Source: Halopseudomonas sp.
GTDB lineage: Bacteria > Pseudomonadota > Gammaproteobacteria > Pseudomonadales > Balneatricaceae
Assembly (NCBI GenBank): GCA_036960405.1
Contig: JBALWS010000005.1
Span: 10,137-74,136 of the forward strand
Direction of reading: 5' to 3'
Length of the DNA: 64,000 bases
Made by a program: the position numbers and the translations under genes
Part shown: one piece after another, positions 6,605-31,625 of the stretch
Numbering within the stretch: position 1 is the stretch's first letter
Layout: each line of letters begins with the position of its first letter
Notes under the pieces: model-generated
What the model saw: the letters and a program-made list of their open reading frames with translations, nothing else
What the model was told of the DNA's origin: nothing
The model's database searches: none

Positions 6605-6916
6605 ATGTCCCAATTCGATAATGTCTCAATCGTTAAACAAGCCAACGCCTACTTTGACGGCAAGGTGACCAGCCGCGCGGTGCTGTTTGCCGACGGTAGC
6701 AAAAAGACGTTAGGGATCATGATGCCGGGCGAGTACGAGCTTGGTACCGAGCAGGCAGAGCTGATGGAGATTATGGCGGGCGACTTGGAGGTGTTACTAC
6801 CGGGCCAAACCGATTGGCAACATATCGTCGGCGGCCAAGAGTTTAACGTGCCTGCCAATGCTGTGTTCAGTCTACGAATTAAGCAGCTCACCGACTACTG
6901 CTGCTCTTACTTTTAA
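6605..6916 (+). CDS. ppnP: Pyrimidine/purine nucleoside phosphorylase (DUF1255)
   Basis: ANAYFDGKVTSR, KTLGIMMPGEY, ELMEI, FNVPAN, DYCCSYF. Confidence 0.93.
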   Translation: MSQFDNVSIVKQANAYFDGKVTSRAVLFADGSKKTLGIMMPGEYELGTEQAELMEIMAGDLEVLLPGQTDWQHIVGGQEFNVPANAVFSLRIKQLTDYCCSYF

Positions 6917-6942
6917 TCCGGATATCAACACGAGTCATCGTC

Positions 6943-7470
6943 ATGAGTTCTCTGAAAGATCAACTGCTCAACGCCGGGCTGGTTAATAAGAAGCAAGTTC
7001 AGCAGGCCAAGAAGCAAAAACATCAACAAAAGCAGAAGGGCCAAGTCACCGCCGACCAGGAAGCGCGTGCGCGAGCCGAACAAGCTAAGTCCGAGAAGAT
7101 CGAGCGCGATCGCGAACTCAACCGCCAACGCCAGGCAGCAGCGGAAGAGAAAGCGATCGTCGCCCAGATCCGTCAATTGATCGATACCAACCAGGTCCGC
7201 AGCGACGGCGGAGAAGTGGCGTACAACTTCACCGATGGCAGCAAAATCAAACGGCTGTACCTGACCGATCTGCTGATCCAGCAACTCAGCAAAGGCCTAC
7301 TAGCGATCGTCAAACAGGACGAAGCCTACACGCTGGTTCCCAATAAGGTTGCCGAGCGAATCGCCCAGCGTGATGAAAGCATCGTCCTGGTTCGCCATAC
7401 CCAGGCGGAAGAGACCGATGAAGACGACCCCTACGCGGATTACCAGATCCCTGACGATCTGATGTGGTAG
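6943..7470 (+). CDS. DUF2058 family protein (YaiL-like)
   Basis: SLKDQLLNAGLV, AQIRQLI, YNFTDG, C-terminal DDPYADYQIPDDLMW. Confidence 0.92.
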   Translation: MSSLKDQLLNAGLVNKKQVQQAKKQKHQQKQKGQVTADQEARARAEQAKSEKIERDRELNRQRQAAAEEKAIVAQIRQLIDTNQVRSDGGEVAYNFTDGSKIKRLYLTDLLIQQLSKGLLAIVKQDEAYTLVPNKVAERIAQRDESIVLVRHTQAEETDEDDPYADYQIPDDLMW

Positions 7471-7498
7471 TGAATACAGCTAGCCTGAGAGCCGAGTT

Positions 7499-7822
7499 AT
7501 GTACCTGACGCTGACCGACCTGGTTTTGTACTTCGCGCTGGCGATTGTCGCTTATATCTGGTGGCACGGACGCGGACTTAAGGACAGCGCCTTTCGCGTG
7601 GTGAAGCGTTACTGCGATGAACAAGACCTGCAACTGCTCGATGAAGGTCTGGTGCTGAACAAGGTACGGATTGGTCGGGGCGAAACGGGGATGCTATGCC
7701 TAAGGCGGCGCTATCGGTTTGAATTTTCGACCACTGGCGATGAACGCTATGTCGGCACCATCGATGTGCTGGGAACGCGGATCCAGTCGATCAAACTCGA
7801 CCCGCACCGAATGCCACACTAA
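7499..7822 (+). CDS. DUF3301 family protein
   Basis: N-terminal TM; YCDEQDLQLLD, RRYRFEFSTTGDERYVG. Confidence 0.85.
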   Translation: MYLTLTDLVLYFALAIVAYIWWHGRGLKDSAFRVVKRYCDEQDLQLLDEGLVLNKVRIGRGETGMLCLRRRYRFEFSTTGDERYVGTIDVLGTRIQSIKLDPHRMPH

Positions 7823-7898
7823 ACATCTGTTCCAAAAGCAGAGCCATCTGAACCGCGCAATGAGTAATTCGACTCGTTACGCGGTCGCCTGGTCAGGA

Positions 7899-8378
7899 TC
7901 AGTGATTACAACCTTCGCCATGAACATGGCCATGTTCCAGCTCGTCTTCGCTCGGCTCACGCACATCAACAACTTCCACTTTAAAGCTCAGCGCCTGGCC
8001 GGCTAACGGATGGTTACCGTCGACGGTGACATTGTCAGCATCCGCGGAGGTAACAACCACCGATACCGGGCCACCGGCGGTGCTGGCTTCGAAACGCATC
8101 CCTACATCGATCTGATCGACGCCGGCAAAGGCATCACGTGGAACGGTCTGGATCATCTCTTCCACTACCGGACCGTAGGCCTCTTCAGCAGCCACATTAA
8201 CGTCCAGCGCGTCGCCCTGCTTTTTACCCAGCAACTCTTTCTCGAGCCCGGGGATGAGGTTGCCATGACCATGCAGGTAGGCAAGCGGCTCGGTACCATC
8301 GGAACTATCTAGCACCTCTCCTTTGGCGTTTGTCAGGGTGTAGTGGATCAACGCCACTTTGTTATCAGAGATCTGCAT
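7899..8378 (-). CDS. slyD: FKBP-type peptidyl-prolyl isomerase SlyD
   Basis: MQISDNKVALIHYTL, YLHGHGNLIPGLE, DGNHPLAGQAL, short His tail HGHVHGEGCNH. Confidence 0.93.
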   Translation of the reverse strand: MQISDNKVALIHYTLTNAKGEVLDSSDGTEPLAYLHGHGNLIPGLEKELLGKKQGDALDVNVAAEEAYGPVVEEMIQTVPRDAFAGVDQIDVGMRFEASTAGGPVSVVVTSADADNVTVDGNHPLAGQALSFKVEVVDVREPSEDELEHGHVHGEGCNH

Positions 8379-9613: not shown

Positions 9614-10255
9614 ATGCATCGAGCGGCAGGATTAGTGTTAGCGGCGGTACTGATTACAGCCTGCGGCCCCTCTTACGAAGCCGAATACCACGCAGCCCAG
9701 AAGGAACTGGAAAGCGTCAAACAGCAACTGGCCGAAGCGCAAAGCAAACTCAGCGCTGCCGACCATGAGACCCGCAGCAAAATTTTCTCGTTGGCACGCC
9801 GTGCCAACACTCACCTCCGGGCTAAAAAACTAGACGCCAACCTGATCAGCAACATTCAGCAAGAGATGGCGCTGCTGGCAGCCAGCTACGCTCAGCTCAA
9901 CAGTAGCCATGATATTACCGCGCTCACCGCCCAGTTTTATACTGAGAAGCTGGACCTGATCCTGCAGCTCAATCGTCAGAAAAGTAGCGGTTACGACCGT
10001 CAATACAACGCCTGTCTATCCGACCTCGACAGCCGGGGCAAAAAGAACGAACTCAGTACCATGCTGTGCGAAGTCCAGGCAGATGCAGCCGCTCGTAAGC
10101 CTCGTTATCAATACATCGCCACCCTTGCCGCGACGTTGGCGATCAGCAAAGAACTACGCGCAGCCCGACAGGCTGACACAACACTCGAGCCCGCGCAGCT
10201 CGACAGCCTATTCAGTGAAGAGATGGCGAAACAGCGAGAGTTAGCATCAAAATAG
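9614..10255 (+). CDS. Hypothetical lipoprotein with coiled coil
   Basis: Lipobox LITA-C; heptad-rich segment; SD AAGGA. Confidence 0.75.
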   Translation: MHRAAGLVLAAVLITACGPSYEAEYHAAQKELESVKQQLAEAQSKLSAADHETRSKIFSLARRANTHLRAKKLDANLISNIQQEMALLAASYAQLNSSHDITALTAQFYTEKLDLILQLNRQKSSGYDRQYNACLSDLDSRGKKNELSTMLCEVQADAAARKPRYQYIATLAATLAISKELRAARQADTTLEPAQLDSLFSEEMAKQRELASK

Positions 10256-10260
10256 GCCTG

Positions 10261-10704
10261 CTACTCACTCTCTGGCGTTTTCTTTAATCTGCGCACGGCT
10301 ACAGTTAAACGCGAAATACACACCAGCTTTTGCTTCTCGTTACGAATTTTGATCTCCCACACCTGGCTGGTCACGCCAATAAACACCGGTTCCGCTCGAC
10401 CGGTGACGATGCCCGATGACACCGGCCATAGGTGGTTAGCGTTGATCTCCATCCCGACACAACTGAATCGCTGCCGATTAATACACGCATTGGCCGCATA
10501 GCTGCCAAGGGTTTCAGCCAATGCGACCGAGGCTCCGCCGTGAAGAATGCCGAAGGGTTGATGGGTCCTTTTATCCACCGGCATCGTCGCTTCCAGATAA
10601 TCATCGCCAATCTCGGTGAATGCTATCGCCAAGTGATCGACCAAGGTGTCACGGCACTCCAGCTGAATCGCATCGAGTGTCAGCGGGGTTTTCCAGATCG
10701 ACAT
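10261..10704 (-). CDS. Hotdog-fold thioesterase (YdiI/MenI-like)
   Basis: MPVDKRTHQPFGILHGGASVALAETLGS, GMEINANH, SRLTVAV. Confidence 0.93.
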   Translation of the reverse strand: MSIWKTPLTLDAIQLECRDTLVDHLAIAFTEIGDDYLEATMPVDKRTHQPFGILHGGASVALAETLGSYAANACINRQRFSCVGMEINANHLWPVSSGIVTGRAEPVFIGVTSQVWEIKIRNEKQKLVCISRLTVAVRRLKKTPESE

Positions 10705-10763
10705 CAAGCTCGCTCCATTTACTCAAAAATCAATCGTCTAGAGTAACGTAACTAAGCACCAAA

Positions 10764-12023
10764 GTGCGCACGACGGTTGCTATCGGCCATCCGCTTGATA
10801 AGCTAGACGCTTATCTTAGTGTCGTCTGGATTCGAGCTGTGCCTGAACGCCTACAACCGTTGCAATACCTGCTACTCCCGTTGATCATTCTTGGCGGGGT
10901 ATATGTTTACCTGCCGCAACTGCCACCGTTTTCATCACCCTGGGAAGAACTGCTGCCCTCGGTACCCTATCTGCTCGGCGGTTTAATCGCGCTGCTCGGG
11001 TGGCACTTCAATAGCGGCCGCAGCCTGCTGGCCTGCATTTTGATTTTGCTCACCAATCTCAGCCTGCGCCAGCCATTCGAGCCGCTGTACCAGCAAACCC
11101 TGCTTGTACTGTTGCCGTTAAACATGGCTCAGATCGCCTGGTACCGAGAGCGAGGGGTGCTCAGCCCGACAGCACTGGTAAGACTGGCCTGGATTGCAGC
11201 CCAGATAGCGGCGGTGACTGCGGCGATCCACTATCATCCAGAGCAATTGCTGCAAGGCCTTAACTTCCACCCGCAGCAGCTTCCTGAGCTACCACTGCCT
11301 TTCGTCGTCCTCAGTACTTTGGCAATTGCAGGGCTGGCGGTTCTAGCCCGACTACTCAGCCAGCAAGATCGATTTGATGCGTACCTACTGATCAGCGTGG
11401 TGGTTAGCTGTGGCCTGATTCTGTTGCCGATACCCCAGCGTGACTTGAGTTTGGTGATATCGGTATTGCTAGCGCTGTGGCTGTTCAGTCTGTTTCGACA
11501 CAGTCATAGCTTGGCTTACCTGGATGATCTGACCGGTCTGCCCGGTCGTCGGGCACTCAACGAACACCTCACACGTCTGGGAAAGCAGCACTGCTTAGCG
11601 ATGCTTGATGTCGACCATTTCAAAAAATTTAACGATAAACATGGCCACGATGTAGGCGACCAAGTACTGAAACTGGTTGCCTCAAAAATCGCCAAGGTAA
11701 GACAAGGTAAAGGTTACCGCTATGGCGGCGAGGAGTTCTGTGTGGTGTTTGCCGGGCGCAAGCTAGAGCAAACCTTGGAACCGCTAGAAGAGCTGCGCCA
11801 AGCAATCGAAGATGCCCGTCTGCAGTTACGCAGTGCCAAACGTCCCCAGAGCAATGATCAAGGTAAAAAACAGCGCGGGACTGCCGGTGCCAAGAGCAGC
11901 AGCGTATCAGTCACGATCAGCATCGGTATCGCCGAACACCAACCCAAGCAGAACACCCTAAAGGCTGCCGACAAAGCGCTCTATAAAGCTAAAGCTGCTG
12001 GTCGTAATAGAGTCTGTCACTGA
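10764..12023 (+). CDS. Membrane-bound diguanylate cyclase (start uncertain)
   Basis: Many TM helices; DDLTGLPGRR, DVDHFKKFNDKHGH, RYGGEEF, ADKALYKAKAAGRN; no RxxD I-site. Confidence 0.92.
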   Translation: MRTTVAIGHPLDKLDAYLSVVWIRAVPERLQPLQYLLLPLIILGGVYVYLPQLPPFSSPWEELLPSVPYLLGGLIALLGWHFNSGRSLLACILILLTNLSLRQPFEPLYQQTLLVLLPLNMAQIAWYRERGVLSPTALVRLAWIAAQIAAVTAAIHYHPEQLLQGLNFHPQQLPELPLPFVVLSTLAIAGLAVLARLLSQQDRFDAYLLISVVVSCGLILLPIPQRDLSLVISVLLALWLFSLFRHSHSLAYLDDLTGLPGRRALNEHLTRLGKQHCLAMLDVDHFKKFNDKHGHDVGDQVLKLVASKIAKVRQGKGYRYGGEEFCVVFAGRKLEQTLEPLEELRQAIEDARLQLRSAKRPQSNDQGKKQRGTAGAKSSSVSVTISIGIAEHQPKQNTLKAADKALYKAKAAGRNRVCH

Positions 12024-12127
12024 AAGGAACCAACGCAAGGAGGACTGATCAAGTATCAATTCAGCGGCGCTGATCATTAACCAATAATAAAGCGATAACG
12101 GCCCTAAGCCGACTTATCTACATCCCT

Positions 12128-12168
12128 AAAAAACAAAACCCCTCACCGGCAGAGCCGATGAGGGGTTT
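12128..12168 (-). terminator. Intrinsic terminator of phasin 2
   Basis: AAACCCCTCA...TGAGGGGTTT stem followed by a T-rich tract on the minus strand. Confidence 0.8.
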
Positions 12169-12188
12169 GGCAAAGAGAAGCTTAGTAA

Positions 12189-12557
12189 TTAAGCAGCTTT
12201 CTTACCAGATACCTTCTCAACTGCAGCTTCAACTTCAGCAGCAGTCTGCTTAGCAGAATCTTCGATTACTGCAGAGAAAGCTTCTTTAGCTTCGGTGAAC
12301 GCAGCAATGCTCTTCTCTGTAGTGTCGGTCATCTTGGCTTCCAGAGCCTTGAAGAACTTAACTTGCAGGTCCATAGCAGCTTTTGGATCTTGGCACTTAG
12401 ACAGAGCTTGGAACTGCTCAAGGCTGGCGTTAACAACGTCAGTCATAGTGTCTTTTTGAACGCCGGCCAGAGTTTCCAGGACCTTTTTGTTGGTCTCAAC
12501 CAGATCCATAACAGGCTTCATGCGAGTGTTCATATCTGCGAATAGATTATCGTACAT
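12189..12557 (-). CDS. phaP: Phasin family protein (PHA granule protein), copy 2
   Basis: Ala/Lys/Glu-rich amphipathic helical 122 aa protein; about two-thirds identical to 12801-13160 by manual alignment; start set at MYDNLF. Confidence 0.78.
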   Translation of the reverse strand: MYDNLFADMNTRMKPVMDLVETNKKVLETLAGVQKDTMTDVVNASLEQFQALSKCQDPKAAMDLQVKFFKALEAKMTDTTEKSIAAFTEAKEAFSAVIEDSAKQTAAEVEAAVEKVSGKKAA

Positions 12558-12639
12558 GGTCATTCCTCTAAGTGTGATAGGTAATATCGAAATCCAGGGT
12601 GGGCACACTACAAGGGTTTCCCAACTCGCCCAGCGACTG

Positions 12640-12650
12640 GTGCGCTGCAC
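12640..12650. promoter_or_regulatory. TGC-N3-GCA palindrome (PhaR-like box) in phasin 2 leader
   Basis: GTGC-GCT-GCAC; near-match half site at 12712-12725 upstream of the -35. Confidence 0.6.
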
Positions 12651-12674
12651 AACTTAGTGCCTACAATTGGGCCT

Positions 12675-12702
12675 ACTATAGCAGTGGCAAACCGACTGTC
12701 AA
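12675..12702 (-). promoter_or_regulatory. sigma70 promoter of phasin 2
   Basis: Minus strand TTGACA-16 bp-TATAGT; hexamers identical to the phasin 1 promoter. Confidence 0.78.
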
Positions 12703-12748
12703 TATCTTTTTCCGCACCGCACAAGAAGTTCTGACAGTTATTTCAAGC

Positions 12749-12782
12749 AAAAAAAATCCCCCGGACCTTAGGGCCAGGGGAT
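12749..12782 (-). terminator. Intrinsic terminator of phasin 1
   Basis: ATCCCC...GGGGAT stem followed by an 8-T run on the minus strand. Confidence 0.8.
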
Positions 12783-12800
12783 CTGTATTCGCGCTTTGGC

Positions 12801-13160
12801 TTACTTGCCAGTCGCTTTCTTAACCGCACCTTCGAATTCAGCAGAAACTTTCTTGCTGGCTTCTTCGACAGAAGATACGTAAGCGTCTTTGGCTTCGCTG
12901 ATCGCTGCGATGCTCTTTTCAGCAGTGTCGGTCATCTTCGCTTCCAGTGCCTTGTAGAAGTTGACCTGCAGCTCCATAGCAGCCTTAGGGTCTTGGCACT
13001 GAGAGACAGCCTTGAACTGCTCCAGGCTAGCGTTAACAACGTCGGTCATGGTCTCTTTCTGAACAGCAGCCAGAGTTTCCATCGCCTTTTTGTTAGTTTC
13101 AGCCAGCTCCAGCACAGGTTGCATGCGAGCTTTCATATCTTCCATAAATTTATCGTACAT
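12801..13160 (-). CDS. phaP: Phasin family protein, copy 1
   Basis: 119 aa paralogue of 12189-12557; same helical Ala/Lys-rich composition. Confidence 0.78.
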   Translation of the reverse strand: MYDKFMEDMKARMQPVLELAETNKKAMETLAAVQKETMTDVVNASLEQFKAVSQCQDPKAAMELQVNFYKALEAKMTDTAEKSIAAISEAKDAYVSSVEEASKKVSAEFEGAVKKATGK

Positions 13161-13191
13161 AACTATTCGCCTTTGCTAGATTAATTTTTAA

Positions 13192-13206
13192 TGCTGCGCT
13201 GCAGCA
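13192..13206. promoter_or_regulatory. PhaR-like palindrome near predicted transcription start of phasin 1
   Basis: TGCTGC-GCT-GCAGCA, contains CTGC-N3-GCAG. Confidence 0.65.
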
Positions 13207-13214
13207 ATGAAACA

Positions 13215-13243
13215 ACTATAGAGGCCTAAATAATAGCTGTCAA
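13215..13243 (-). promoter_or_regulatory. sigma70 promoter of phasin 1
   Basis: Minus strand TTGACA-17 bp-TATAGT. Confidence 0.85.
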
Positions 13244-13245
13244 AC

Positions 13246-13266
13246 ATTTTGTGCAGTGCACAAAAT
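13246..13266. promoter_or_regulatory. 21-bp palindrome (PhaR-like) abutting the -35 of phasin 1
   Basis: ATTTTGTGC-AGT-GCACAAAAT. Confidence 0.65.
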
Positions 13267-13275
13267 CACAACACC

Positions 13276-14199
13276 TCAGCTTGTTTCTTGCTCCTGCCCT
13301 GTTTCATAAAACAGTTCTACCGGGACATCCAGCTGGCTCCTCAACTGTATCGCCAACAGGTCCATCTCCGCATCACTCCAAGGCAATGCCGCGGCCTCAG
13401 TCGGCTGCCTCGCCAAGGTATAGGCCTGAATCTTTTTGAGCTGTACCCTAGCATCGAGTAGTCGTTTCACCAACGCCACATAGCCGGGATAACCGTCGGC
13501 AACATTGTTTTGCGCGCGCCAGTTAAAGAAGCAGGATTGAAACACCAGCGGATATTCACTACCAAACGCGACGATCTTGTCGGTCAAGCGCTCGAACGAC
13601 ACCGAGGTACGGTTGAGCTGCTGCAGCGATTGGGCATCCCAATAATCAAGCTTGCACCAGACTTCACCATTGGCCTGATAAAAAGATGACCAAAGCGGAG
13701 CCAAGTCTTTACGGTCGAGCCCGGTAGCATTGGTGAAAAGCACCAACTTAACCGACTCCGCTAGCTCAAATTCGGCCTTCAGCTCGACCAACAACCGCAA
13801 CACCTGCGGCAATATCCGCACGGTGGTCGGCTCACCATCGCCTGCCAAACCTATATCTCTGAGCGGATAACCCCGATAGCCTTCGGCTGAGATGGAACCC
13901 AACCAATGGCGCAGTTCCTGCTCAAGCTGGACCAACGACGGTTCTACAACGGCCTGATCATCAGTGCGCTCAACCTGGCAGTAAACACAGTCAAAGTTAC
14001 AACGTTTATCCGGATTAAGGTTGATACCCAGCGACAACCCACCCGAACGGCGTGATACCACCGGGTAAACCAAACGGTCAAACTCGCTGAGCCGACTATG
14101 GTTGTCATAGCTCAGGGTAATTTTGGCTTCAAGACTGAGCCCCGGTTCAAGACTACCTTCCAGTTCAAGGCTGTCTTTCACTTCAATCCGATCACTCAT
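13276..14199 (-). CDS. Radical SAM protein of unknown function (COG0731-like)
   Basis: VYPVVSRRSGGLSLGINL followed by CNFDCVYC (CX3CX2C); GDGEPT; LFTNAT; ATGA overlap with pdxJ. Confidence 0.88.
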   Translation of the reverse strand: MSDRIEVKDSLELEGSLEPGLSLEAKITLSYDNHSRLSEFDRLVYPVVSRRSGGLSLGINLNPDKRCNFDCVYCQVERTDDQAVVEPSLVQLEQELRHWLGSISAEGYRGYPLRDIGLAGDGEPTTVRILPQVLRLLVELKAEFELAESVKLVLFTNATGLDRKDLAPLWSSFYQANGEVWCKLDYWDAQSLQQLNRTSVSFERLTDKIVAFGSEYPLVFQSCFFNWRAQNNVADGYPGYVALVKRLLDARVQLKKIQAYTLARQPTEAAALPWSDAEMDLLAIQLRSQLDVPVELFYETGQEQETS

Positions 14200-20824: not shown

Positions 20825-21481
20825 TTAAAATTCCATCTCAGGAACGTGATCTGGCACCACCAGCTCACCGGCCGTCTTAGCGATAATCTCTTCGACAGAG
20901 ACCCCCGGAGCGCGCTCCAGCAGGTGGAACTTACCCTCTTTAATCTCGATAAAGGCTAGATCGGTGAGCACCTTCTTGATACAAGCAGCGCCGGTCAACG
21001 GTAGGCTGCACTTCGACAGCAGTTTGGACTCTCCGTGCTTGCTGGCGTGGGTCATGGTAACGATGATGTTATCCGCACCGGCAACCAGGTCCATCGCGCC
21101 GCCCATGCCTTTGATTAGCTTTCCGGGGATCAGATAAGAAGCGATATTTCCTTCGACATCGACCTCAAATGCACCCAGTACAGTCAGGTCGACATGGCCG
21201 CCACGGATCATGGCGAATGACTCGGCCGAGGAGAAGATCGAGGCACCGGTAGCGGCCGTAACCGTTTGCTTGCCGGCATTGATCATATCGGCATCGATGG
21301 TTTCTTCGGTAGGAAAAGGCCCCATCCCCAGCAAACCATTCTCGGATTGCAGCATCACTTCGATCCCCTCGGGGATGTAGTTGGCCACCAATGTTGGGAT
21401 ACCGATACCCAGGTTTACGTAGAAACCATCTTGCAGTTCACGCGCCACACGCTGGGCCAGTTGTTCACGATTTAAAGCCAT
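20825..21481 (-). CDS. scoB: 3-oxoacid CoA-transferase subunit B
   Basis: VNLGIGIPT, catalytic LQSENG, KGMGGAMDLV, LTDLA. Confidence 0.95.
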   Translation of the reverse strand: MALNREQLAQRVARELQDGFYVNLGIGIPTLVANYIPEGIEVMLQSENGLLGMGPFPTEETIDADMINAGKQTVTAATGASIFSSAESFAMIRGGHVDLTVLGAFEVDVEGNIASYLIPGKLIKGMGGAMDLVAGADNIIVTMTHASKHGESKLLSKCSLPLTGAACIKKVLTDLAFIEIKEGKFHLLERAPGVSVEEIIAKTAGELVVPDHVPEMEF

Positions 21482-21484
21482 GTT

Positions 21485-22195
21485 TTAACCCTCCCCTTCG
21501 CTGCGCACGGTGCGCTGTTCGATACGTTTTTCAAACGTACCCTGGATCAATCGATCAACGTAGATCCCCGGCGTGTGAACATGAGCCGGATCCAGTTCGC
21601 CCGGTTCAACGATCTCTTCGACCTCCATCACCGTGATTTTGCCCGCGGTGGCGGCCATCGGGTTAAAGTTCATCGCGGTGTGGCGATAGATAGCGTTGCC
21701 ATAGCGATCGGCTTTCCAAGCTTTAACGATGGCGAAGTCGCCCTTGATCGACTCTTCCAAAATATACTGGCGACCGCCAAACTCCTTCACCTCTTTACCT
21801 TCACCCACTTCGGTACCGTATCCGGTCGCGGTGTAGAACGCGGGAATACCAGCACCTGCGGCGCGCATCTTCTCAGCCAGGGTCCCCTGAGGCGTCAGTT
21901 CCACCTCCAATCGGCCATCGAGCAACTGCTCCATGAAGAGTTGGTTTTCACCGACGTAGGAAGAGACCATCTTTTTGATCTGCTGGTCTTCGAGCAAAAT
22001 CCCCAAACCAAAACCGTCAACACCGGCGTTATTGGAGACGACTGTCAGATCTTTGGTGCCTTTACGTTTGATCTCGCCGATCAAGTTCTCAGGGATACCG
22101 CAAAGGCCAAAGCCACCGGCAATAATGGTCATGCCATCTTCGAGGCCGGCCATCGCCTCTTCGTAACTGTTTACCACCTTGTCAAAACCGGACAT
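21485..22195 (-). CDS. scoA: 3-oxoacid CoA-transferase subunit A
   Basis: [32 protein letters not shown]. Confidence 0.95.
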
Positions 22196-22395: not shown

Positions 22396-24234
22396 TTAGC
22401 TGTCGACGGTCGCTTCGGCCAACGCCTGCTTCGGATTTTTGGGATAGTAACGCTCGGGTAAACGGTCGATATGACTAAAGAAGCGCGTGTCCTTGTACGG
22501 CATCTTCATAAAACCCGCGACCCCCAGTCCCTTAATCTGCGGTACCGCATCCAGAATCTGTTGCAAACAGCTAACGAATTCGGACTCCTGAGCAGGGTTC
22601 AGCAGCTTGAAGTGACTATGAATCTTGAGGTGGCGTTCGAGACTCTCGAAAATGATCAAACCGGTATGGTGCAACTGATTAAGCTGTTTGATGGTAGCGA
22701 TAATCGCTTCCGGTAGTTCCAGGTTCTCCTCGGGGTCACGACCGTCTTCAAAGTAAGAGTGCAGCCGACTCTGGTCTTCCAGGTCCGGCACCGCCGCCAC
22801 CTCGTAGGGAATATGCTGCTTGGAGTCAGCAACAAACGGCAGTACAGCGCTAGTTCGTTCGATATGCAGCGTGCAGCGCGCGTCGAACAGGCAGCTTTTG
22901 AAGATACCTTGCCGATACACCGAGCGCGCCAGATTGACCAGATTGTTGACCGTCGCGACAAAGGCTTCACGCTGATCGGGGTTGTACAGGTTAAGGCTCG
23001 AGTCTATATAGACCCCGTCTGTTTCCCAACGTACCGCCAGCCCGCCCACCACCGGAAACTTAGCCAGACGGCTGACGGCGGCCAGAAAAGCTTTTTCGGT
23101 CTCCCCCATACCTTGAAGGAAGTTTTTGTAATAACGATCAAACTGGACATCATCAATATCCAGATCAGGGCTCTCGACCCCCTCCTCTTTCAGGAACGCT
23201 TTACGCGAACTGTACACCACCGAATCCATGGTCCGTGCAGGCAGCACCCATACCGGAACCAGCTGCACCAGTGGAGGCTGCGGCAGGTCGATCAGCATCA
23301 GTCGATTGATACCGGCCATGTTGCGTAACCAGTAATCCCCCGCCTGCTGGCGCACCACAGGGTCGGCATCGAGCAACCGTTCCAATACCCGCGCCAGTTC
23401 CTGCGGCAGCCCCAGCGAGGTGGGAGGAATCGCATGATGACCGAAGCGGCTCGATTGACCCGAGGCCAAGGCATAAAGGGTTCCGGCTGCGCCCTGCTCG
23501 TCAAAGCGCGGCGTCGAGAGTCCTCCGTTGAGCTGTTCATCGCCAATAAAATACACATCGCCTAATCGGGCGTTGCTGTGCTGCAAATCATCCGACATCA
23601 ACTCCATCACATTGGCGCTCACGTGCTGTTGGTTTTGATCCAATTGAGCAAACACCGCCGAGCCCCAGTCGATCAGGCCAATCTTTTCAGTTGTCGGATC
23701 AAAGACAATATTGGAGGGTTTGATATCGCCGTGAACCAGCGGCCGCTGTGACTGCACCGAAGCACCACGCAACGCGACCAGAATATCGGCTAGCTGGGCG
23801 GCGATATGCACCACTAATCGCGGCGACAACGGCCCACACTGTAACGCTAGCTGCTCCAGATCCAGCCCCGGCACCCGCTCCATCACCATAATGGCTTGGC
23901 GACGAATCCGCTGGAACTCGATCAATTTGGGTACCAGCGGGTGATCGACCTGAGACAGCAAAAAAGCCTCTTCCTCAAGCCGGTCCTGAACATGCTGCGG
24001 TAACGTAATACGGGAAAACTTAAACACCAATTGGCGTCCCTGACGGTCAACCCCGCCAAAGACAAAACCAAATGCCCCCTTGCCGATCATCTCAATATCT
24101 CGATAACCCAGCTGTTCGAGCTGCTCCTGACACAGGCTGAACCAGTTCTTGAGCTTGCGCGCATCATCCTGGCTGAGCAGGTAGATAGACTGCTCTTCGG
24201 GAATATAGAACTGCTGTAGATCGGGTTTATCCAT
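22396..24234 (-). CDS. Hanks-type (Ser/Thr) protein kinase with unknown C-terminal domain
   Basis: GKGAFGFV, LVFK, alphaC Glu in RLEEEA, HGDIKPSN, DWG; no TM; start 24234 or 24243. Confidence 0.88.
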   Translation of the reverse strand: MDKPDLQQFYIPEEQSIYLLSQDDARKLKNWFSLCQEQLEQLGYRDIEMIGKGAFGFVFGGVDRQGRQLVFKFSRITLPQHVQDRLEEEAFLLSQVDHPLVPKLIEFQRIRRQAIMVMERVPGLDLEQLALQCGPLSPRLVVHIAAQLADILVALRGASVQSQRPLVHGDIKPSNIVFDPTTEKIGLIDWGSAVFAQLDQNQQHVSANVMELMSDDLQHSNARLGDVYFIGDEQLNGGLSTPRFDEQGAAGTLYALASGQSSRFGHHAIPPTSLGLPQELARVLERLLDADPVVRQQAGDYWLRNMAGINRLMLIDLPQPPLVQLVPVWVLPARTMDSVVYSSRKAFLKEEGVESPDLDIDDVQFDRYYKNFLQGMGETEKAFLAAVSRLAKFPVVGGLAVRWETDGVYIDSSLNLYNPDQREAFVATVNNLVNLARSVYRQGIFKSCLFDARCTLHIERTSAVLPFVADSKQHIPYEVAAVPDLEDQSRLHSYFEDGRDPEENLELPEAIIATIKQLNQLHHTGLIIFESLERHLKIHSHFKLLNPAQESEFVSCLQQILDAVPQIKGLGVAGFMKMPYKDTRFFSHIDRLPERYYPKNPKQALAEATVDS

Positions 24235-24251
24235 AGACACCATCAGAAACG

Positions 24252-24277
24252 ATAAATAAAAGGGGAGCAAGCTCCCC
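24252..24277 (-). terminator. Intrinsic terminator between bkd operon and kinase
   Basis: Minus strand GGGGAG-CTTG-CTCCCC followed by TTTTATTTAT. Confidence 0.7.
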
Positions 24278-24347
24278 CTCTGCTACATCCATCTCATAGC
24301 TGAAATAAGCGCGTCAGGGTTAGGCAAAAATGAACCAAAGAGCGGAG

Positions 24348-24362
24348 TTTACATATTGTAAA
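24348..24362. promoter_or_regulatory. Palindrome TTTACA-N3-TGTAAA upstream of kinase
   Basis: TTTACA-TAT-TGTAAA; same core as 28315-28337. Confidence 0.55.
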
Positions 24363-24410
24363 TGAGCATCTTGAGTTCGTTTTTAACGACGCCGTGACGT
24401 GCTTAGGCAG

Positions 24411-26015
24411 CTATGACAGGTCGAGCAGCATCGCCGCCGGATCTTCCAGATACGACTGCCACAAGGCACTGAAACGGGCGATGGTGCCGCCGTCAATGAT
24501 ACGGTGATCGCCCGACCAGCTGATATTCATCAGCGAACGCGCCACCACCTCACCGGCGTCATTGAAGCGCGGTAGGGTCTGGGTTTTACCCAGCGCCACG
24601 ATCGCCACCTCGGGAGGATTCACCACAGGGGAGGCGTAAGTCCCCCCCAGCGCACCGATATTGGAGATACTGATCGTGCCACCCTGCAAGTCGACGGGAC
24701 TAACCCGACCCGAACGCGCCGCCTCGGCAAGTCGGCTGACCTCTTGGGCGATCTCAAGAATGCTTAGTGTTTCTACCTTCTTGATATTAGGTACCATCAA
24801 GCCAAGCTTGGAGTCGACCGCCATGCCGATATTACAATGCGGCTGGTAGTGGATCTCGGTGCAATCGGCATTCACCTGACTGTTAAGGATCGGATACTGC
24901 TGTACCGCCAGCGCCAATGCTTTCATGATGAACGGCATCAGCGTCAGGCGAATCCCTTGCTTTTCGGCTTTAAGTTTCAGCTCGGCACGCAGCGCCAGCA
25001 GCACGGTAACATCAACCTCGTCACCGAAAGTGAAGTGCGGAATGGTCGATGCTGACAGCGTCATCTGTTTGGCCATCGCCGCCTTAATGCCGCGAATCGG
25101 CTCGATCCGAATCTCGCTGGGAGCAGAACTCGAGGTAACAGGCGCTGAAACCGTAACAGGCTCGATCGCTGCCACTGTTTGGCTGCCGCCCTGTTGGAAA
25201 CGAACGATATCTTCCTTCAACACCCGACCGTTCTTACCGCTACCCGATACCTGGCTGATATCGAGTTCAAACTCGCGAGCGATACGACGTACCGCCGGAC
25301 TGGCCAGCGCTTTACCACTGCGCACACCATTTACCGGTGCTTCAGCAAGCGCACTTTGCTGCACGTTAGAAGCCACAGACGCAGCAGCCCTAGTCGTTTC
25401 AACGACAGTTGCTTCGGCAGGAGCAAGGTCATCGCCATCTGAATCGGCAATCAACGCAAACAACGGTCCATGAACCTTGGCCGACTCGCCTTGGGCGAAG
25501 TAGAGTTTGGTCACTACACCGGCTTTGGGGGCAGGGATCTGCACCATCGCCTTATCGGTCATCACATCAACGACCGGCTGGTCCTCTTCGATACGATCGC
25601 CTTCAGCAATTAGCCACTCCACCACCTCGCACTCAACAATACCCTCACCGATATCCGGCAAGATAAAGTCTTCGCTAGCAGTGCCTGCGATCTGCGGCTT
25701 GCCTACAGTCGCTGTTTCTGTAGCTGCAACATTTTCAACCGCTGCCGTTTGTGCACTTGGAGGTTGAGCCGTGTCACCGCCCAAATTCACCTCGAACAGC
25801 GGTTGGTGAACCTTGGCACTCTCGCCCTGCTGATAATAAAGCCGCGTCACCTGTCCGGTGAAAGGTGCTGAGATCTGCACCAGCGCCTTGTCGGTCATCA
25901 CATCCGCGACCGGCTGATCCTCTTCGATCTGATCACCGACTGCGATCAACCATTCGACCAGCTCGCACTCGACGATGCCTTCACCGATATCCGGCAGAAT
26001 AAAATCTTTGTTCAT
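24411..26015 (-). CDS. bkdB: Branched-chain keto-acid dehydrogenase E2 (two lipoyl domains)
   Basis: Two LPDIGEGIVECE...TDKA lipoyl domains; ALASPAVRR E3/E1-binding domain; catalytic DHRIIDG. Confidence 0.94.
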   Translation of the reverse strand: MNKDFILPDIGEGIVECELVEWLIAVGDQIEEDQPVADVMTDKALVQISAPFTGQVTRLYYQQGESAKVHQPLFEVNLGGDTAQPPSAQTAAVENVAATETATVGKPQIAGTASEDFILPDIGEGIVECEVVEWLIAEGDRIEEDQPVVDVMTDKAMVQIPAPKAGVVTKLYFAQGESAKVHGPLFALIADSDGDDLAPAEATVVETTRAAASVASNVQQSALAEAPVNGVRSGKALASPAVRRIAREFELDISQVSGSGKNGRVLKEDIVRFQQGGSQTVAAIEPVTVSAPVTSSSAPSEIRIEPIRGIKAAMAKQMTLSASTIPHFTFGDEVDVTVLLALRAELKLKAEKQGIRLTLMPFIMKALALAVQQYPILNSQVNADCTEIHYQPHCNIGMAVDSKLGLMVPNIKKVETLSILEIAQEVSRLAEAARSGRVSPVDLQGGTISISNIGALGGTYASPVVNPPEVAIVALGKTQTLPRFNDAGEVVARSLMNISWSGDHRIIDGGTIARFSALWQSYLEDPAAMLLDLS

Positions 26016-26026
26016 CGTCCCCACCC

Positions 26027-27004
26027 TCAAAAGTTCACGCTGGTTTTAATCGCTTCAAATATCTTCCACTGGTCAGGGATGTACTCCTTCTCCAGTGCCA
26101 GCGGATAGGGCACATCAAGCCCGGCCACTCGCGCTGTCGGCGATTCAAGGTGGAGGAAACATTGCTCTTGAATAGTGGTCGCGATCTCGCCAGCAAAACC
26201 ACCGGTCAGCGGCGCTTCGTGACTGATCAGCAAACGGCCGGTTTTTTGAACCGACTCGGCGACGGTTTCGACATCCCACGGCAACAGTGTCCGCAGGTCG
26301 ATCAGCTCGCAGGAGATCCCCTCTTTGTCGGCCAGTTCCGCCGCCAACTCGAGATATTCCATCTGCGCACCCCAGGCCAGCAGAGTAATGTCGCTGCCTT
26401 CGCGCACCACTTCGGCCTTGCCTAACGGTAGCTGGTAATCCTCTTCGGGGACTTCGCCAACCGAGGCGCGGTAGATCCGTTTCGGTTCGAAGAAGATGAC
26501 CGGGTTATCGTCACGAATCGATGCCAGCAGCAAGCCTTTAGCCTGGTGCGGATTACGCGGCACCACCACTTTCAAACCGGGAGTCTGGGTAAAGTAAGCT
26601 TCGGGCGATTGCGAGTGGTAGTGACCACCGGCGATACCACCGCCATAAGGTGTACGTATCGTCAGCCCACCGACATCGAACAGGTTACCCGAGCGGTAAC
26701 GGAACTTGGCCGCTTCGTTAACAATCTGATCGAACGCCGGAAAGATATAGTCGGCGAACTGGATCTCGGCCACGGCCACCGAGCCTTGCGAGGCTAAACC
26801 GTTGGCAAAACCGATAATCCCCTGTTCCACCAGCGGCGTATTAAAACAACGTTCACGGCCAAACTTTTCCTGCAGATGGCTGGTGGCGCGGAACACACCG
26901 CCGAAGACACCAACATCCTCGCCAAAACAGACCACCCGCGGGTTGGATTCCATCGCGATATCCAGCGCATTGTTGACCGCTTGCAATAGGTTCATCTTAG
27001 TCAT
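26027..27004 (-). CDS. bkdA2: Branched-chain keto-acid dehydrogenase E1 beta
   Basis: [39 protein letters not shown]. Confidence 0.95.
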
Positions 27005-28196
27005 GCTTCACCCCCTCGGACTTGTCGAGTTGCGCGGCGCTATTGGGGTAAGCGTCGGGGTAGCGACGGATATGTTCTTTGAGCTGCTGCATTTGGATCT
27101 GTAGGTGCGGCGGCGGAGTATCGTAGACATCGGTAATCATCTCATTGATGTCTGGCACAGCCACTTTTTCGGCTCTCTTCATCGCCGCCATCACTGCCTG
27201 GCGCTCGGTCTCGAATAGCTGCTTATCTTGCTCTTCGCTCCACCAATCCTGCTGCAATAGCCAGTTTTTCATCCGCAACAACGGATCCCGGTCACGCCAC
27301 TTAGCTTCCTCTTCTTTACTCCGGTAACCCGAAGGATCATCCGAAGAGGAGTGCGCCGCCAACCGATAGCTCATCGCTTCGATCAGCACCGGTTCATTCT
27401 GTTCAACCGCAATCTTGCGCGCCTGACGGGTCGCTTCGAGCACAGCCAGAATATCGTTGCCGTCGACACGGATGGTATGCATGCCGTAGCCCAGTCCACG
27501 CGGAGCGATACCGTCACCGGCAAATTGTTCGCTCGAAGGAGTGGAGATGGCATAACCGTTGTTTCGGCACAAAAAGATCGCCGGAACTTTGAGTACCGAA
27601 GCCATATTCAAGGCAGCATGAAAGTCACCTTCTGAGGCGGCACCTTCGCCAAACACCGCGACGGTGCAATGCCCTTCTCCGGCCAGCTTCTGGCCGTAGG
27701 CATAACCGGTCGCCTGCGGCAGCTGGGTCGCCAAGGGTGAAGAGATGGTCATGTAATGCAGTTTGGCCGAACCGTAGTGGATCGGCATCTGCCGGCCCTT
27801 ACCGTAATCCAGCGCATTGCTGAATAGCTGGTTCATGAATTCATCGAGGGTAAAGCCCCGATAGACCAGCGCGCCCTGCTCGCGATACTGGGCCATGATC
27901 ATATCCTGATCATCCAGTGCGGCAGCAAAGCCTACGGTGGTGGCTTCCTCGCCAGTCGACTGCATGTAGAAACTCAGCCTGCCCTGGCGCTGCGAGGCGA
28001 GGCCACGCTCGTCCAGTGCACGCGTTCTCACCATGCTGGAATAGATACGAAGCGCCAGTGGCTGATCAATATCAGGCGACTGGGCGTTCTTATAAAGGCT
28101 ACCGTCCTGCTTCAACACCTTGTAGGTGGGAATTTGCAGTGCGTCGCCGCGGATAAACTGGGGCTTATGGATAGCCCGGTTAGTCGGTGTGCTCAT
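26997..28196 (-). CDS. bkdA1: Branched-chain keto-acid dehydrogenase E1 alpha
   Basis: [20 protein letters not shown] motif [10 protein letters not shown]...[13 protein letters not shown]. Confidence 0.95.
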
Positions 28197-28314: not shown

Positions 28315-28337
28315 AAACTTTACATGCTGTAAAGTTT
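28315..28337. promoter_or_regulatory. 23-bp palindrome upstream of bkdA1
   Basis: AAACTTTACA-TGC-TGTAAAGTTT. Confidence 0.65.
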
Positions 28338-28543: not shown

Positions 28544-29215
28544 CTAAAACGGACAGGGACAAACACCTTCGATCCGCTCGCCGCTGACAGGATGGTCAAA
28601 CTCAATCGATGTCGCATGCAGCATTAACCGCTTGGCCATAAAATACGCCTCGTCGCTGGCATACAGATCACAGCCCAAGATCGGATGGCCGATCTCACGG
28701 CTATGAATACGCAGTTGATGGGTCCGACCCGATAGCGGCTGAAACTGCACCCGTGTTGCCAACGGTTCTGCAATGCGTTCGATAACCCGATAGTTAGACC
28801 GCGCCTGTTTACCGGTCTCGTAGCAGATCTTTTGTAAGGGGAAATTGGGACGATCTTTGGCTATCGGCAAGTCGATACTGCCGCAGTTATCGCTCAGGTG
28901 GCCGTGTAACAACGCGGTGTAGGTTTTGTTTACGCTGCGGTCCTGAAACTGTTTGGTCAGGATAGCATTGGTCGGCTTATTCAACGCCACGATCAAGATA
29001 CCCGAGGTACCAAAATCCAACCGGTGGACCATCGTTGCGGTCGAAAAATCTTGCACTAAGCGGAAGTGAACCGAATCTTTATTGAGCGGATGCTTGCCCG
29101 ACAGACTCAACAAGCCACTGGGTTTATTGATCAGTAACAGCTCGTCATCTTGATACAGAATTTCGATCTGCTGGTCACAGAACGGGACGATAAAGGGGTC
29201 GGCTTGCGGTTGCAT
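28544..29215 (-). CDS. RluA family RNA pseudouridine synthase
   Basis: INKPSGLLS, VHRLDFGTSG (catalytic Asp), GRTHQLRIH, GHPILGCDLY, RLMLHA; start set at MQPQADP. Confidence 0.93.
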   Translation of the reverse strand: MQPQADPFIVPFCDQQIEILYQDDELLLINKPSGLLSLSGKHPLNKDSVHFRLVQDFSTATMVHRLDFGTSGILIVALNKPTNAILTKQFQDRSVNKTYTALLHGHLSDNCGSIDLPIAKDRPNFPLQKICYETGKQARSNYRVIERIAEPLATRVQFQPLSGRTHQLRIHSREIGHPILGCDLYASDEAYFMAKRLMLHATSIEFDHPVSGERIEGVCPCPF

Positions 29216-29276
29216 AGAGGTATATGGCCCGGAGACACTAACTGGGGTAAATTTTCGGAGCCTATCTTCAGCTAAA

Positions 29277-29972
29277 TCAGCGGCAACGACAATAGCGGCG
29301 TTCGGGTCGACCAACCGTGCCGTAGCTGATGTGCGCCTCGAGTTCCCGGGTGCTGATCATATACTCCAGGTAACGCCGAGCCGTAGTTCGACTGGCACCG
29401 ATGATGCCCCCTACCTCCTCCGCACTCAGGGGGCTCGATTGCTCGGCAAAGACACTACGAATCTTATCCAGCGTCAGTCCATCGATCCCTTTAGGCAGTC
29501 GATCCGGCTGACTAGCCTCGCCGCCAGGCTGCTGTGTTCTGGGCAACAGGGTATCGACATCGGTCTGGATCAACGACTCGAGTTGGCGGAGCTTGTTCAA
29601 GTGTTCGGCATAGTTATGCAGTGCACTTTGCAGACGTTCGAATACCAACGGCTTAAGAATGTAATCAAACACGCCGCCACGCAGCGCTTCACGCAGGGTT
29701 TCCACCTCGGTCGCCGCAGTAACCAGAATCACATCGGTACGGCTGTTCTGGGCCCGTAGGCGGCGTAGCAGATCTAGCCCGGTACCGGTCGGAAACTGGA
29801 TATCCAACAGCAGCAACTCGGGTTCGAGCACTTCGACCAAGTCCTGCGCCTCCTCCAAACCGTGCGCTACGCCGACCAGCTCCACACCCTCGATCCGTTC
29901 GAGAAAGCGTTTCTGAATCTCGGCGATGCGCACATCATCTTCTGCCACGACTACACGAATCGGTTCACTCAT
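29277..29972 (-). CDS. CitB/DpiA-family response regulator
   Basis: VAEDD, LLDIQFP, ILVTAA, DYILKP, C-terminal SRTTARRYLEY...YGTVGRPER. Confidence 0.93.
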   Translation of the reverse strand: MSEPIRVVVAEDDVRIAEIQKRFLERIEGVELVGVAHGLEEAQDLVEVLEPELLLLDIQFPTGTGLDLLRRLRAQNSRTDVILVTAATEVETLREALRGGVFDYILKPLVFERLQSALHNYAEHLNKLRQLESLIQTDVDTLLPRTQQPGGEASQPDRLPKGIDGLTLDKIRSVFAEQSSPLSAEEVGGIIGASRTTARRYLEYMISTRELEAHISYGTVGRPERRYCRCR

Positions 29973-29984
29973 CAGTACCCTACC

Positions 29985-31625
29985 CTAGTTATTCGACTCA
30001 ACAGCAACCGGTTTATCTGTTAGTAGCTTAGGGATATAAACAATAAAACGCGCGCCACCCTGATCGCCTGGCTCGACATCCACCGAGCCCCCGAGTCGCT
30101 GCAACAGGCTACGCACCAGGTGCAGCCCCAGCCCATGCCCCTGTTCTGCCTTACTGGTCACCCCTTTCTCGAAGATTCGTTGCTGCTCAGCTTTGGCAAC
30201 ACCCGCGCCTTGGTCTTCGATCTCAAAGATCAGATCATCGCCCAGATCGGTCATGGTCAAGCTGACCTCCCCTTGCGGGCCGGTATGTTTTAGCGTGGCT
30301 TCAAGCGCATTATCGATCAGGTTACCCAAGATACTGACTAGCTGCTCGCGCGGCAGCCGTTCGGGGAGCTCAACCATGCGACTATCGGGATCGATCAGCA
30401 ATGTCAGCCCCATTTCACGCGCACGATTGTATTTTCCGAGCAGGCACCCCGCCAAGATTGGATCGGGCACCGCCTCAAGCAATAGCTCAATCAACTGCTG
30501 GTGACGCTCGGTCTCTTGGCCGATCAAACTCAGCGCTTCATCGTTGGCACCGATCTGGATCAACCCGGCGATCGTATGCAGCTTGTTTGAGTACTCATGC
30601 GCCTGGCTACGCAAACTGTCAGCATATTGCTGGATTCGGGTCAGTTTTCGACTCACCAGATCCAGTTCATTTTTGCGCCGAAAGCTCGACACTACTCCAG
30701 TTATTTTATCCCCCTGTTTCAGCGGTAAACGGTTCACCACCAGATTGTAATCGTGCAGCCATACCTCCTGGTCAAACTGGGGTTGGCCGGTTTTGAGCAC
30801 CTCTAGCATGCCACTATCGGGTAGCACGTCTAGCAGTGCACTCCCGGTCAATTGGATATCGGGGGATAGTCCCAGAGTATCAATGGCGGTCCGGTTGAAG
30901 GTGGTAATTCGGCCGTCAGCATTGATCGCTATAATCCCCTCCCGAACCGACTCCAAGGTGGCGTTACGCTCTTCGAACAGCCGCCCAATCTGCTCTGGCT
31001 CCAGGCCAAAAATCGCTTTCTTGAAATGACTTGCAAACCACAGCGCCGTCAGCACACTGATCCCAAAGGCCGCTGCAATGACCAACAACAGCGTCATCCG
31101 ATAGCGATCGATGATCTGATCGACCCGATCCAGCATCAGCCCGACCGACACGATCCCAATCACCTGCTCGTCACTGACATCAAACACCGGTGCCTTACCC
31201 CGGACCGTGGCGCCGAGACTTCCGATAGCGGTTTGAACGTAAGGCTTACCGTACAGCAAGGCAGGTTCATTAAAGTCGCCGTCATCGTCGTGCATCGGTT
31301 TCCCGATCCGTGCAACGGTTGGATGCGCTAGCCGCACCCCAAGTTTGTCACCGATCACGACAAAGCGCGCCTGGGTTTTATCCGCTAAAGCCAAACTCAA
31401 CGGCTGCAAAAAAACAGAATCACGGCGTTCGACAGCAGCGATAATTTCCGGCATCGCAGCGATCGTCTTGGCTACATGCAAGGCACGTTGGGCCATCTGT
31501 TCATTGAGCGAGTGGCCTAGAAATTTCAGCGCAAACAGCCCAACCAGCCCCGTCTGCAGCAAGGCCATCAGCCCCAAAATCAACACCATTCTGGGCTTGA
31601 GCTTCAAACGACGAAGAGAGATCAC
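29985..31625 (-). CDS. CitA/DpiB-family sensor histidine kinase
   Basis: Two TMs with Cache-type periplasmic domain (RLAHP), PAS, H-box QAHEYSNKLH, GNLIDNA, EDQGAG, GHGLGL. Confidence 0.93.
   Translation of the reverse strand: MISLRRLKLKPRMVLILGLMALLQTGLVGLFALKFLGHSLNEQMAQRALHVAKTIAAMPEIIAAVERRDSVFLQPLSLALADKTQARFVVIGDKLGVRLAHPTVARIGKPMHDDDGDFNEPALLYGKPYVQTAIGSLGATVRGKAPVFDVSDEQVIGIVSVGLMLDRVDQIIDRYRMTLLLVIAAAFGISVLTALWFASHFKKAIFGLEPEQIGRLFEERNATLESVREGIIAINADGRITTFNRTAIDTLGLSPDIQLTGSALLDVLPDSGMLEVLKTGQPQFDQEVWLHDYNLVVNRLPLKQGDKITGVVSSFRRKNELDLVSRKLTRIQQYADSLRSQAHEYSNKLHTIAGLIQIGANDEALSLIGQETERHQQLIELLLEAVPDPILAGCLLGKYNRAREMGLTLLIDPDSRMVELPERLPREQLVSILGNLIDNALEATLKHTGPQGEVSLTMTDLGDDLIFEIEDQGAGVAKAEQQRIFEKGVTSKAEQGHGLGLHLVRSLLQRLGGSVDVEPGDQGGARFIVYIPKLLTDKPVAVESNN

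Follow-up and report, generated by a model that had tools for sequence, protein, structure and literature searches.

A soluble Hanks-type kinase family with an orphan C-terminal domain encoded behind the branched-chain 2-oxoacid dehydrogenase genes of Gammaproteobacteria

We analysed a 64,000-nucleotide stretch of Halopseudomonas sp. contig JBALWS010000005.1, hereafter the window, and focused on a 612-residue Hanks-type kinase whose gene directly follows those of the branched-chain 2-oxoacid dehydrogenase (BCKDH) complex. Between 20.8 and 28.2 kb, six genes share the minus strand in the order E1α–E1β–E2–kinase–scoA–scoB. The BCKDH subunits are encoded by bkdA1 (26997–28196; E1α, 399 residues, PF00676 with an E value of 1e-93), bkdA2 (26027–27004; E1β, 325 residues, PF02779 and PF02780) and bkdB (24411–26030; E2 acyltransferase, 539 residues). 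The E2 protein is organised as two lipoyl domains (PF00364, matched twice), one E3-binding domain (PF02817) and one catalytic domain (PF00198). No gene for the E3 component lies within the bkdA1–bkdA2–bkdB–kinase cassette, and the kinase gene occupies the slot of lpdV in the Pseudomonas putida bkd operon.

The open frame of the kinase spans positions 22396–24270 of the minus strand, and translation starts at the ATG at 24234 (MDKPDLQQFYIPEE), which yields a 612-residue product matching the called protein and all orthologues. We rejected the upstream TTG at 24270, as this codon sits within a hairpin and the orthologues use the ATG. The hairpin is a terminator-like GC stem followed by a run of T (24258–24281, minus strand, detected by a sequence scan) and lies about 20 nt ahead of the kinase ATG, in the 176-nt spacer that separates it from the E2 gene. 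A preliminary description, made from the DNA letters, had placed a co-oriented kinase gene directly after bkdA1–bkdA2–bkdB and before scoAB; the gene order is confirmed and the start is corrected from 24270 to 24234.

The dehydrogenase is, by sequence, a mitochondrial-type (animal-like) BCKDH. Human BCKDHA is the best solved relative of its E1α and aligns with it over the whole length (406 bits, E value of 1e-120), as compared with 226 bits for P. putida BkdA1, about 211 bits for the E1α of the Geobacillus pyruvate dehydrogenase (PDH) and 126 bits for human PDH. The E1α and E1β genes are of the heterotetrameric type, the lipoyl-bearing E2 carries an E3-binding domain, and the closest solved relatives are BCKDH rather than PDH subunits. 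Residues 277–293 of E1α (27318–27368, minus strand; from the translation and its alignment with human E1α) align with the phosphorylated loop of human BCKDHA (YRIGHHSTSDDSSAYRS), with Ser283 at the position of the site-1 phosphoserine and Ser289 at that of site 2, in agreement with the similarity to the mammalian loop that had been pointed out before. This loop is almost invariant in 71 copies from the related loci scanned.

Anatomy of the kinase

The N-terminal part of the kinase (residues 1–320; 23275–24234, minus strand) comprises a conserved N-terminal extension followed by a Hanks-type domain (residues ~44–310). The Pfam Pkinase match covers residues 56–215 only, which correspond to the N-lobe and the catalytic loop, with an E value of 1e-17; the other Pfam matches reported for the protein are APH, PK_Tyr_Ser-Thr and ABC1, and no curated NCBIfam model reaches its cut-off. 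We aligned 31 sequences spanning 57–85% identity to delineate the catalytic elements. An invariant glycine-rich loop (GKGAFG, residues 51–56) precedes Lys72 of the VFKF motif, which forms an invariant pair with Glu89 of helix C. The catalytic loop LVHGDIKPSN is invariant from His168 through Gly, Asp170, Ile, Lys172, Pro and Ser to Asn175, with glycine in place of the arginine, making this a non-RD kinase, and the DFG motif is replaced by an equally invariant DWG (Asp189-Trp-Gly191).

The GDVYFIGDE stretch constitutes the P+1/APE segment, with Glu233 located 12 residues ahead of Asp245 of RFDEQGAAGTLYALASG. Asp245 is invariant and Glu233 is at least 90% conserved, so that the APE motif is a variant (GDE or GEE) with its functional residues retained. 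In the predicted model, Asp245 resides at the start of a long helix (residues 242–258) corresponding to helix F. This position, along with the spacing between Glu233 and Asp245, assigns Asp226 to the site usually held by the P+1 threonine. The same two observations led us to reject an alternative register derived from a HMMER alignment to StkP, which would put GDVYFIG on subdomain IX; the stretch falls at the ragged end of that alignment. Both the HGD catalytic loop and the P+1 aspartate noted in the preliminary description therefore hold.

A full-length AlphaFold2 model computed from the 31 sequences (predicted local distance difference test score, pLDDT, of 74.5; predicted template modelling score, pTM, of 0.77) features a complete bilobal kinase domain, in which the activation segment (residues 193–239) is modelled with low confidence. 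Foldseek matched this domain to PknA, PknB, Stk1 and PknE with E values of ~1e-10 to 1e-12 and target-normalised TM scores of ~0.7. The protein is soluble: in a Kyte-Doolittle scan no 19-residue segment is hydrophobic enough for a membrane helix, and the highest mean, 1.6, maps to a core helix of the kinase fold. Every testable Hanks-type feature is thus present: the glycine loop, the Lys-Glu pair, the catalytic loop, the aspartate of the DFG position, the APE glutamate, the helix-F aspartate and the bilobal fold. The lysine of the D-x-K-x-x-N motif sets protein Ser/Thr kinases apart from enzymes of the aminoglycoside- and choline-kinase type. Since this lysine and the other catalytic residues are invariant, the 612-residue protein is very probably an active protein kinase rather than a pseudokinase, an activity that we infer from these residues. 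Across genera, the kinase is 67–88% identical, which is about equal to the 69–90% observed for E1α over the same genera.

The C-terminal domain spans ~290 residues (321–612; 22396–23274 of the minus strand, including the stop codon) and was modelled separately from 29 sequences (pLDDT 82, pTM 0.80). It is predicted to fold as a β-hairpin followed by two α-β-β-α-β-β repeats, which align in register over 79 columns (hhalign E value of 0.013), as exemplified by FKSCLFDARCTLHIER and FMKMPYKDTRFFSHIDR. The domain matched no Pfam or NCBIfam family and no sequence of the PDB even at an E value of 10. Foldseek retrieved no related fold from the PDB (best E value of 0.13, TM score of ~0.1) or from the predicted viral structures of BFVD (best E value of 0.046, TM score of ~0.15); the PCNA/clamp, ChuS/HemS and HUH Rep folds appeared as weak top rows that we do not consider meaningful. 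These searches bear out the earlier description of the C-terminal region, put at about 300 residues, as an unknown domain.

An exhaustive phmmer search of 1.84 billion representative proteins returned 48 matches to the C-terminal domain, all of which belong to this kinase family or are fragments of it, and no other architecture carrying the domain was found among these representatives. The entries P0125 and P0133 of that library look like corrupted translations, source-data artefacts rather than new architectures: P0125 resembles the C-terminal domain with systematic R-to-W/C, P-to-L/F, A-to-V, T-to-I and H-to-Y substitutions, as C-to-T converted DNA would yield, and P0133 is of low complexity. 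The domain is conserved to the same degree as the kinase domain. Its many invariant residues include (domain numbering) Cys128, His137, His172, Asp177, Asp180, Glu183, His203, Glu210, Lys217, His219 and Lys257, a set that would sooner suggest a surface for ligand binding or catalysis than a passive linker. Collectively, these data define a new, strongly constrained kinase family with a family-specific domain of unmatched fold.

Conserved order of the dehydrogenase and kinase genes

To place the gene order in context, we scanned one genome per species for relatives of the kinase, which are encoded in at least 450 species genomes, and kept the best 80 loci, of which 78 had enough upstream DNA to be informative. 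Synteny was assessed by tblastn with the E1α, E1β and E2 proteins of the window and by measuring the spacers. The kinase gene lies 3′ of E1α–E1β–E2 on the same strand at 73 of the 78 loci. At 64 of these it directly follows the E2 gene, with a spacer of 3–296 nt (median of 20 nt, and 30 nt or less at 38 loci), and the two genes nearly touch at most Halomonas and Marinobacter loci. Another nine loci keep the order with an insert between E2 and the kinase (an RlmJ gene in six Alteromonadaceae, further inserts at L027 and L017, and 7.6 kb at L010). At the remaining five (Shewanella, Colwellia, Thalassotalea, Planctobacterium and a SAR324 metagenome-assembled genome) the kinase is found elsewhere, among unrelated neighbours.

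The linked loci come from Motiliproteus, Neptunomonas, Amphritea, Halomonas, Vreelandella, Billgrantia, Marinobacter, Halovibrio, Balneatrix, Neptunicella, Glaciecola and Aliiglaciecola. According to gene calls and Pfam labels obtained independently, the four genes stand in this order also in Hahella and Aestuariirhabdus, as well as in Marinobacterium and Allohahella, which had been picked on E1α similarity alone. The most divergent member that we found, with a C-terminal domain 36% identical to that of the window, also preserves this order, the E2 gene ending 20 nt ahead of the kinase. Reciprocally, the best 120 named E1α homologues all come from genera in which the kinase was found.

The outer flanks are reshuffled. 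Downstream of the kinase, we counted 46 different neighbour clusters in 75 loci, the commonest accounting for 12%, and upstream of E1α there are 32 different clusters in 54 loci. In Halomonas the flanks include a glycine-betaine-type ABC transporter and Mla genes, and in Marinobacter an amine dehydrogenase, a methyl-accepting chemotaxis protein, or MerR and acyl-CoA dehydrogenase genes. Common descent is thus not enough to account for the linkage between the kinase and bkd, and the conserved unit is exactly bkdA1–bkdA2–bkdB–kinase. We conclude that the operon partnership of the kinase with BCKDH is near-obligate.

This outcome bears on two suggestions of the preliminary description, which had called for a synteny analysis, reasoning that orthologues in unrelated contexts would speak against its proposal, and had considered BCKDH and the CoA-transferase encoded by scoAB as alternative partners of the kinase. 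The genomic link to BCKDH is upheld by the 73 linked loci, whereas that to the CoA-transferase is not. The scoA (21485–22195, minus strand) and scoB (20825–21481, minus strand) genes follow the kinase after an AT-rich gap of ~200 nt, and they occupy this position only in the window and at the Motiliproteus loci L003 and L004; they are absent from it at Motiliproteus L001, L005 and L049 and in every other genus among the loci scanned. We therefore discarded ScoAB as a partner of the kinase.

Several loci deviate in their local organisation. At the Alteromonadaceae loci L069, L071, L074, L075, L077 and L078, a gene for an RlmJ-type rRNA methyltransferase (PF04378) sits between bkdB and the kinase, at ~7000–8000 of each locus (2490–3500 in L077). 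An acyl-CoA thioesterase II gene lies 3′ of the kinase at these loci, followed in most by a hexapeptide-transferase gene, and the kinase–thioesterase pair is retained at the Planctobacterium locus L073, where bkd is not adjacent. At L010 (Halomonas ramblicola), the 3′ end of bkdB and the kinase are ~7.6 kb apart (360–8000), with four crudely called open frames in between, and it looks like an insertion split the cassette. At the Marinobacter loci L011 and L014, a MerR regulator gene, an acyl-CoA dehydrogenase gene and an unannotated gene of ~580 codons directly follow the kinase (~9850–13500), an arrangement that resembles the liuR–ivd start of a leucine-catabolism cluster and would place the cassette within a larger branched-chain catabolic cluster. 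The E2 protein itself carries two lipoyl domains (~530–540 residues) in many genera and one (~420–450 residues) in Vreelandella, some Marinobacter and Allohahella. As the kinase accompanies both forms, the number of lipoyl domains does not track its presence.

Candidate function and rival explanations

The most economical reading of our data is that the kinase acts post-translationally as a regulator dedicated to the BCKDH complex encoded just upstream of it, a proposal to which we give an even chance of being correct. By phosphorylating one BCKDH subunit, the kinase would reduce the flux through the degradation of branched-chain amino acids. Ser283 of the E1α active-site loop is the foremost candidate for the modified residue, and its equivalent is the target of BCKDK in animals. 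The role of the C-terminal domain would be either to attach the kinase to the complex or to sense a metabolite, for example a branched keto acid, an acyl-CoA or NADH. Besides the conserved operon linkage, the strong constraint on the kinase, the animal-like type of E1α and the hairpin ahead of the kinase gene, the presence of branched-chain and acyl-CoA genes among the neighbours of the cassette elsewhere is in line with this reading.

The proposed role as a dedicated 2-oxoacid dehydrogenase kinase, acting on an animal-like E1α with both phosphosite serines, recalls that of BCKDK and the pyruvate dehydrogenase kinases. Those enzymes, however, are GHKL (histidine-kinase-like) ATPases, whereas the protein described here is of the Hanks type and has no HATPase_c or BCDHK_Adom3 match in Pfam; any function shared with BCKDK would therefore be convergent. 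Phosphorylation control is viewed as a mitochondrial feature of BCKDH, and for bacteria only transcriptional control of bkd is known to us. A literature search with incomplete journal coverage brought up no publication that connects a bacterial kinase with BCKDH.

Among bacterial kinases, PknA, PknB and PknE of Mycobacterium tuberculosis and Stk1 and StkP of Firmicutes share the catalytic fold and motifs and are the best matches in sequence and structure. The kinase of the window differs from them by (i) the lack of a transmembrane segment and of PASTA or other known sensor domains, (ii) the HGD and DWG motifs, the P+1 aspartate and an activation segment of ~42 residues, (iii) its unique C-terminal domain and (iv) its fixed position in a metabolic operon. 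A closer functional parallel might be PknG of Actinobacteria, a soluble Hanks-type kinase that is reported to govern 2-oxoglutarate dehydrogenase through OdhI in response to amino-acid supply (PMC9769921, PMC8546545). PknG acts via the FHA protein OdhI/GarA, carries rubredoxin and TPR domains and sits in a glnX–glnH–pknG cluster; in contrast, the kinase studied here is encoded inside the dehydrogenase operon, with no FHA gene in the cassette and no TPR match in Pfam.

In its layout the protein also evokes E. coli AceK, in which a soluble kinase fold and a regulatory domain are encoded by the last gene of a metabolic operon, behind a hairpin-bearing spacer that lowers expression, and which blocks an active-site serine of a dehydrogenase. 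The two proteins have no sequence relation, as Pfam and NCBIfam returned no match to the AceK family, and the AceK target is encoded elsewhere in the genome. By extension, marine Gammaproteobacteria may have evolved their own Hanks-type BCKDH kinase that directly targets Ser283, in convergence with the mitochondrial BCKDK, and whose C-terminal domain, of an unseen fold, senses branched keto acids or acyl-CoA or acts as the opposing phosphatase, thereby forming an AceK-like on/off switch in a single polypeptide; we view this fuller scenario as possible and hold it tentatively. E. coli YegI, a soluble enterobacterial kinase of ~650 residues with an uncharacterised C-terminal half, lies beside the gene for the phosphatase PphC and not beside bkd, and we rejected a relationship with it: similarity was detectable in neither half (best BLASTP E value of 0.49; hhalign probability of 1.4% for the C-terminal domain). 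A link to the kinase of the nasA–nirBD nitrate-assimilation region of Pseudomonas was likewise set aside, as no such neighbourhood occurs at the loci examined, although no direct test was made.

A number of observations weigh against direct control of BCKDH. The serine loop belongs to the active site of E1α and is also kept in bacteria without the kinase, so it is not indicative of the target; we concur with the caution voiced earlier that this motif is uninformative alone, and the loop permits the phosphorylation hypothesis while giving no support to it. Neither a phosphatase nor an FHA protein nor any further signalling partner is encoded in the cassette, and five loci have the kinase apart from bkd. 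The P+1 aspartate and the long activation segment are atypical, and the substrate could accordingly be an unusual one. The C-terminal domain, with its numerous invariant His, Asp, Glu and Lys residues, might equally have an enzymatic function, which the proposed model does not foresee. What the kinase acts on, in which direction it would regulate and what its C-terminal domain does are inferred.

Co-expression with bkd would also be expected of a kinase with a different substrate in branched-chain or acyl-CoA metabolism, or of one that modifies a transcription factor, for example a LiuR- or BkdR-type regulator or the binder of a TTTACA-N3-TGTAAA palindrome described below, with induction of BCKDH being the input rather than the target. 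Operon membership indicates co-regulation and does not designate a substrate. Five loci retain the kinase without adjacent bkd, and in Alteromonadaceae the kinase remains beside the thioesterase gene even when bkd is unlinked (L073). Known soluble Hanks-type kinases that govern a 2-oxoacid dehydrogenase work through an intermediary, as PknG does by phosphorylating OdhI (PMC9769921, PMC8546545). Yet the cassette is accompanied by no regulator or FHA gene, its flanks varying by genus, and spacers as short as 3–30 nt to the E2 gene, seen in different families, are what one would expect of a subunit or a dedicated modifier. We consider such another substrate the main rival, though an unlikely one. 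A different division of labour, in which the protein would be an accessory subunit, a bifunctional enzyme with a C-terminal phosphatase as in AceK or with a small-molecule handling activity, or a small-molecule kinase, could account for a C-terminal domain that is as conserved as the kinase domain and rich in invariant His, Asp, Glu, Lys and Cys, for the weak matches of the APH and ABC1 models to the catalytic core and for the position of the gene, which is that of lpdV in P. putida. We deem it distinctly improbable, as the protein-kinase pattern is followed by the D-x-K-x-x-N motif, by the glycine loop and the Lys-Glu pair, and by the complete C-lobe with its APE-like glutamate and helix-F aspartate, and no resemblance of the C-terminal domain to a phosphatase or to E3 could be detected.

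The kinase might finally be unrelated to BCKDH, having landed behind bkdB in an ancestor as a hitch-hiking stress or anti-phage kinase. The terminator-like hairpin between E2 and the kinase in this genome would agree with such an origin, as would the generic matches to the defence kinase models PD-T4-6, Mad6 and PglW, which involve the kinase core only. These matches nonetheless fall far under the family cut-offs, and we rejected the identification as a defence-system kinase on this ground. The linkage persists across two orders despite the reshuffling of both flanks, conservation is at the level of housekeeping genes and no mobile or defence-island context surrounds the locus, which together make a chance association very improbable indeed.

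Should the kinase act on BCKDH, many marine Gammaproteobacteria may use phosphorylation to switch this enzyme, like animals but with an unrelated kinase. Two unrelated kinase superfamilies would then clearly have converged on the regulation of one enzyme. A widespread orphan family would gain a function, a domain without structural relative would be newly defined, and there would be a means to influence the flux of branched-chain amino acids and acyl-CoA in the biotechnology hosts Halomonas and Marinobacter. Hosts that can be cultivated and manipulated genetically are at hand for a direct test of the hypothesis.

Expression signals and neighbouring genes

Hairpins comparable to that of the window, rich in GC and different in sequence, occur in the E2–kinase spacers of L002, L003, L004, L005, L006 and L049, which belong to Neptunomonas, Amphritea and other Motiliproteus loci. 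By analogy with the aceA–aceK spacer of E. coli, in which a hairpin lowers expression of the last gene, the hairpin would keep the kinase level below that of the BCKDH complex in this genome and its closest relatives, probably holding the kinase sub-stoichiometric. Rfam matched no family in the 20–29 kb region of the window, spacers included.

The palindrome TTTACA-N3-TGTAAA occurs twice in the window, as compared with 0.05 copies expected by chance. One copy lies downstream of the E2 gene (24348–24362) and the other upstream of bkdA1 (28319–28333), where it overlaps a promoter-like −35 hexamer. Degenerate TTTAC-N5-GTAAA copies are found ~135–235 nt upstream of E1α at the Motiliproteus loci L001, L004 and L005 (at positions 3849, 3883 and 3824, respectively, the match being looser in L005). 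The palindrome is probably the operator of a regulator.

Upstream of the bkd promoter region, genes for an RluA-type pseudouridine synthase, a response regulator and a sensor histidine kinase lie on the same strand as bkd (28544–31625). The response regulator and histidine kinase genes are conserved at this upstream position only at the Motiliproteus loci L001 and L004.

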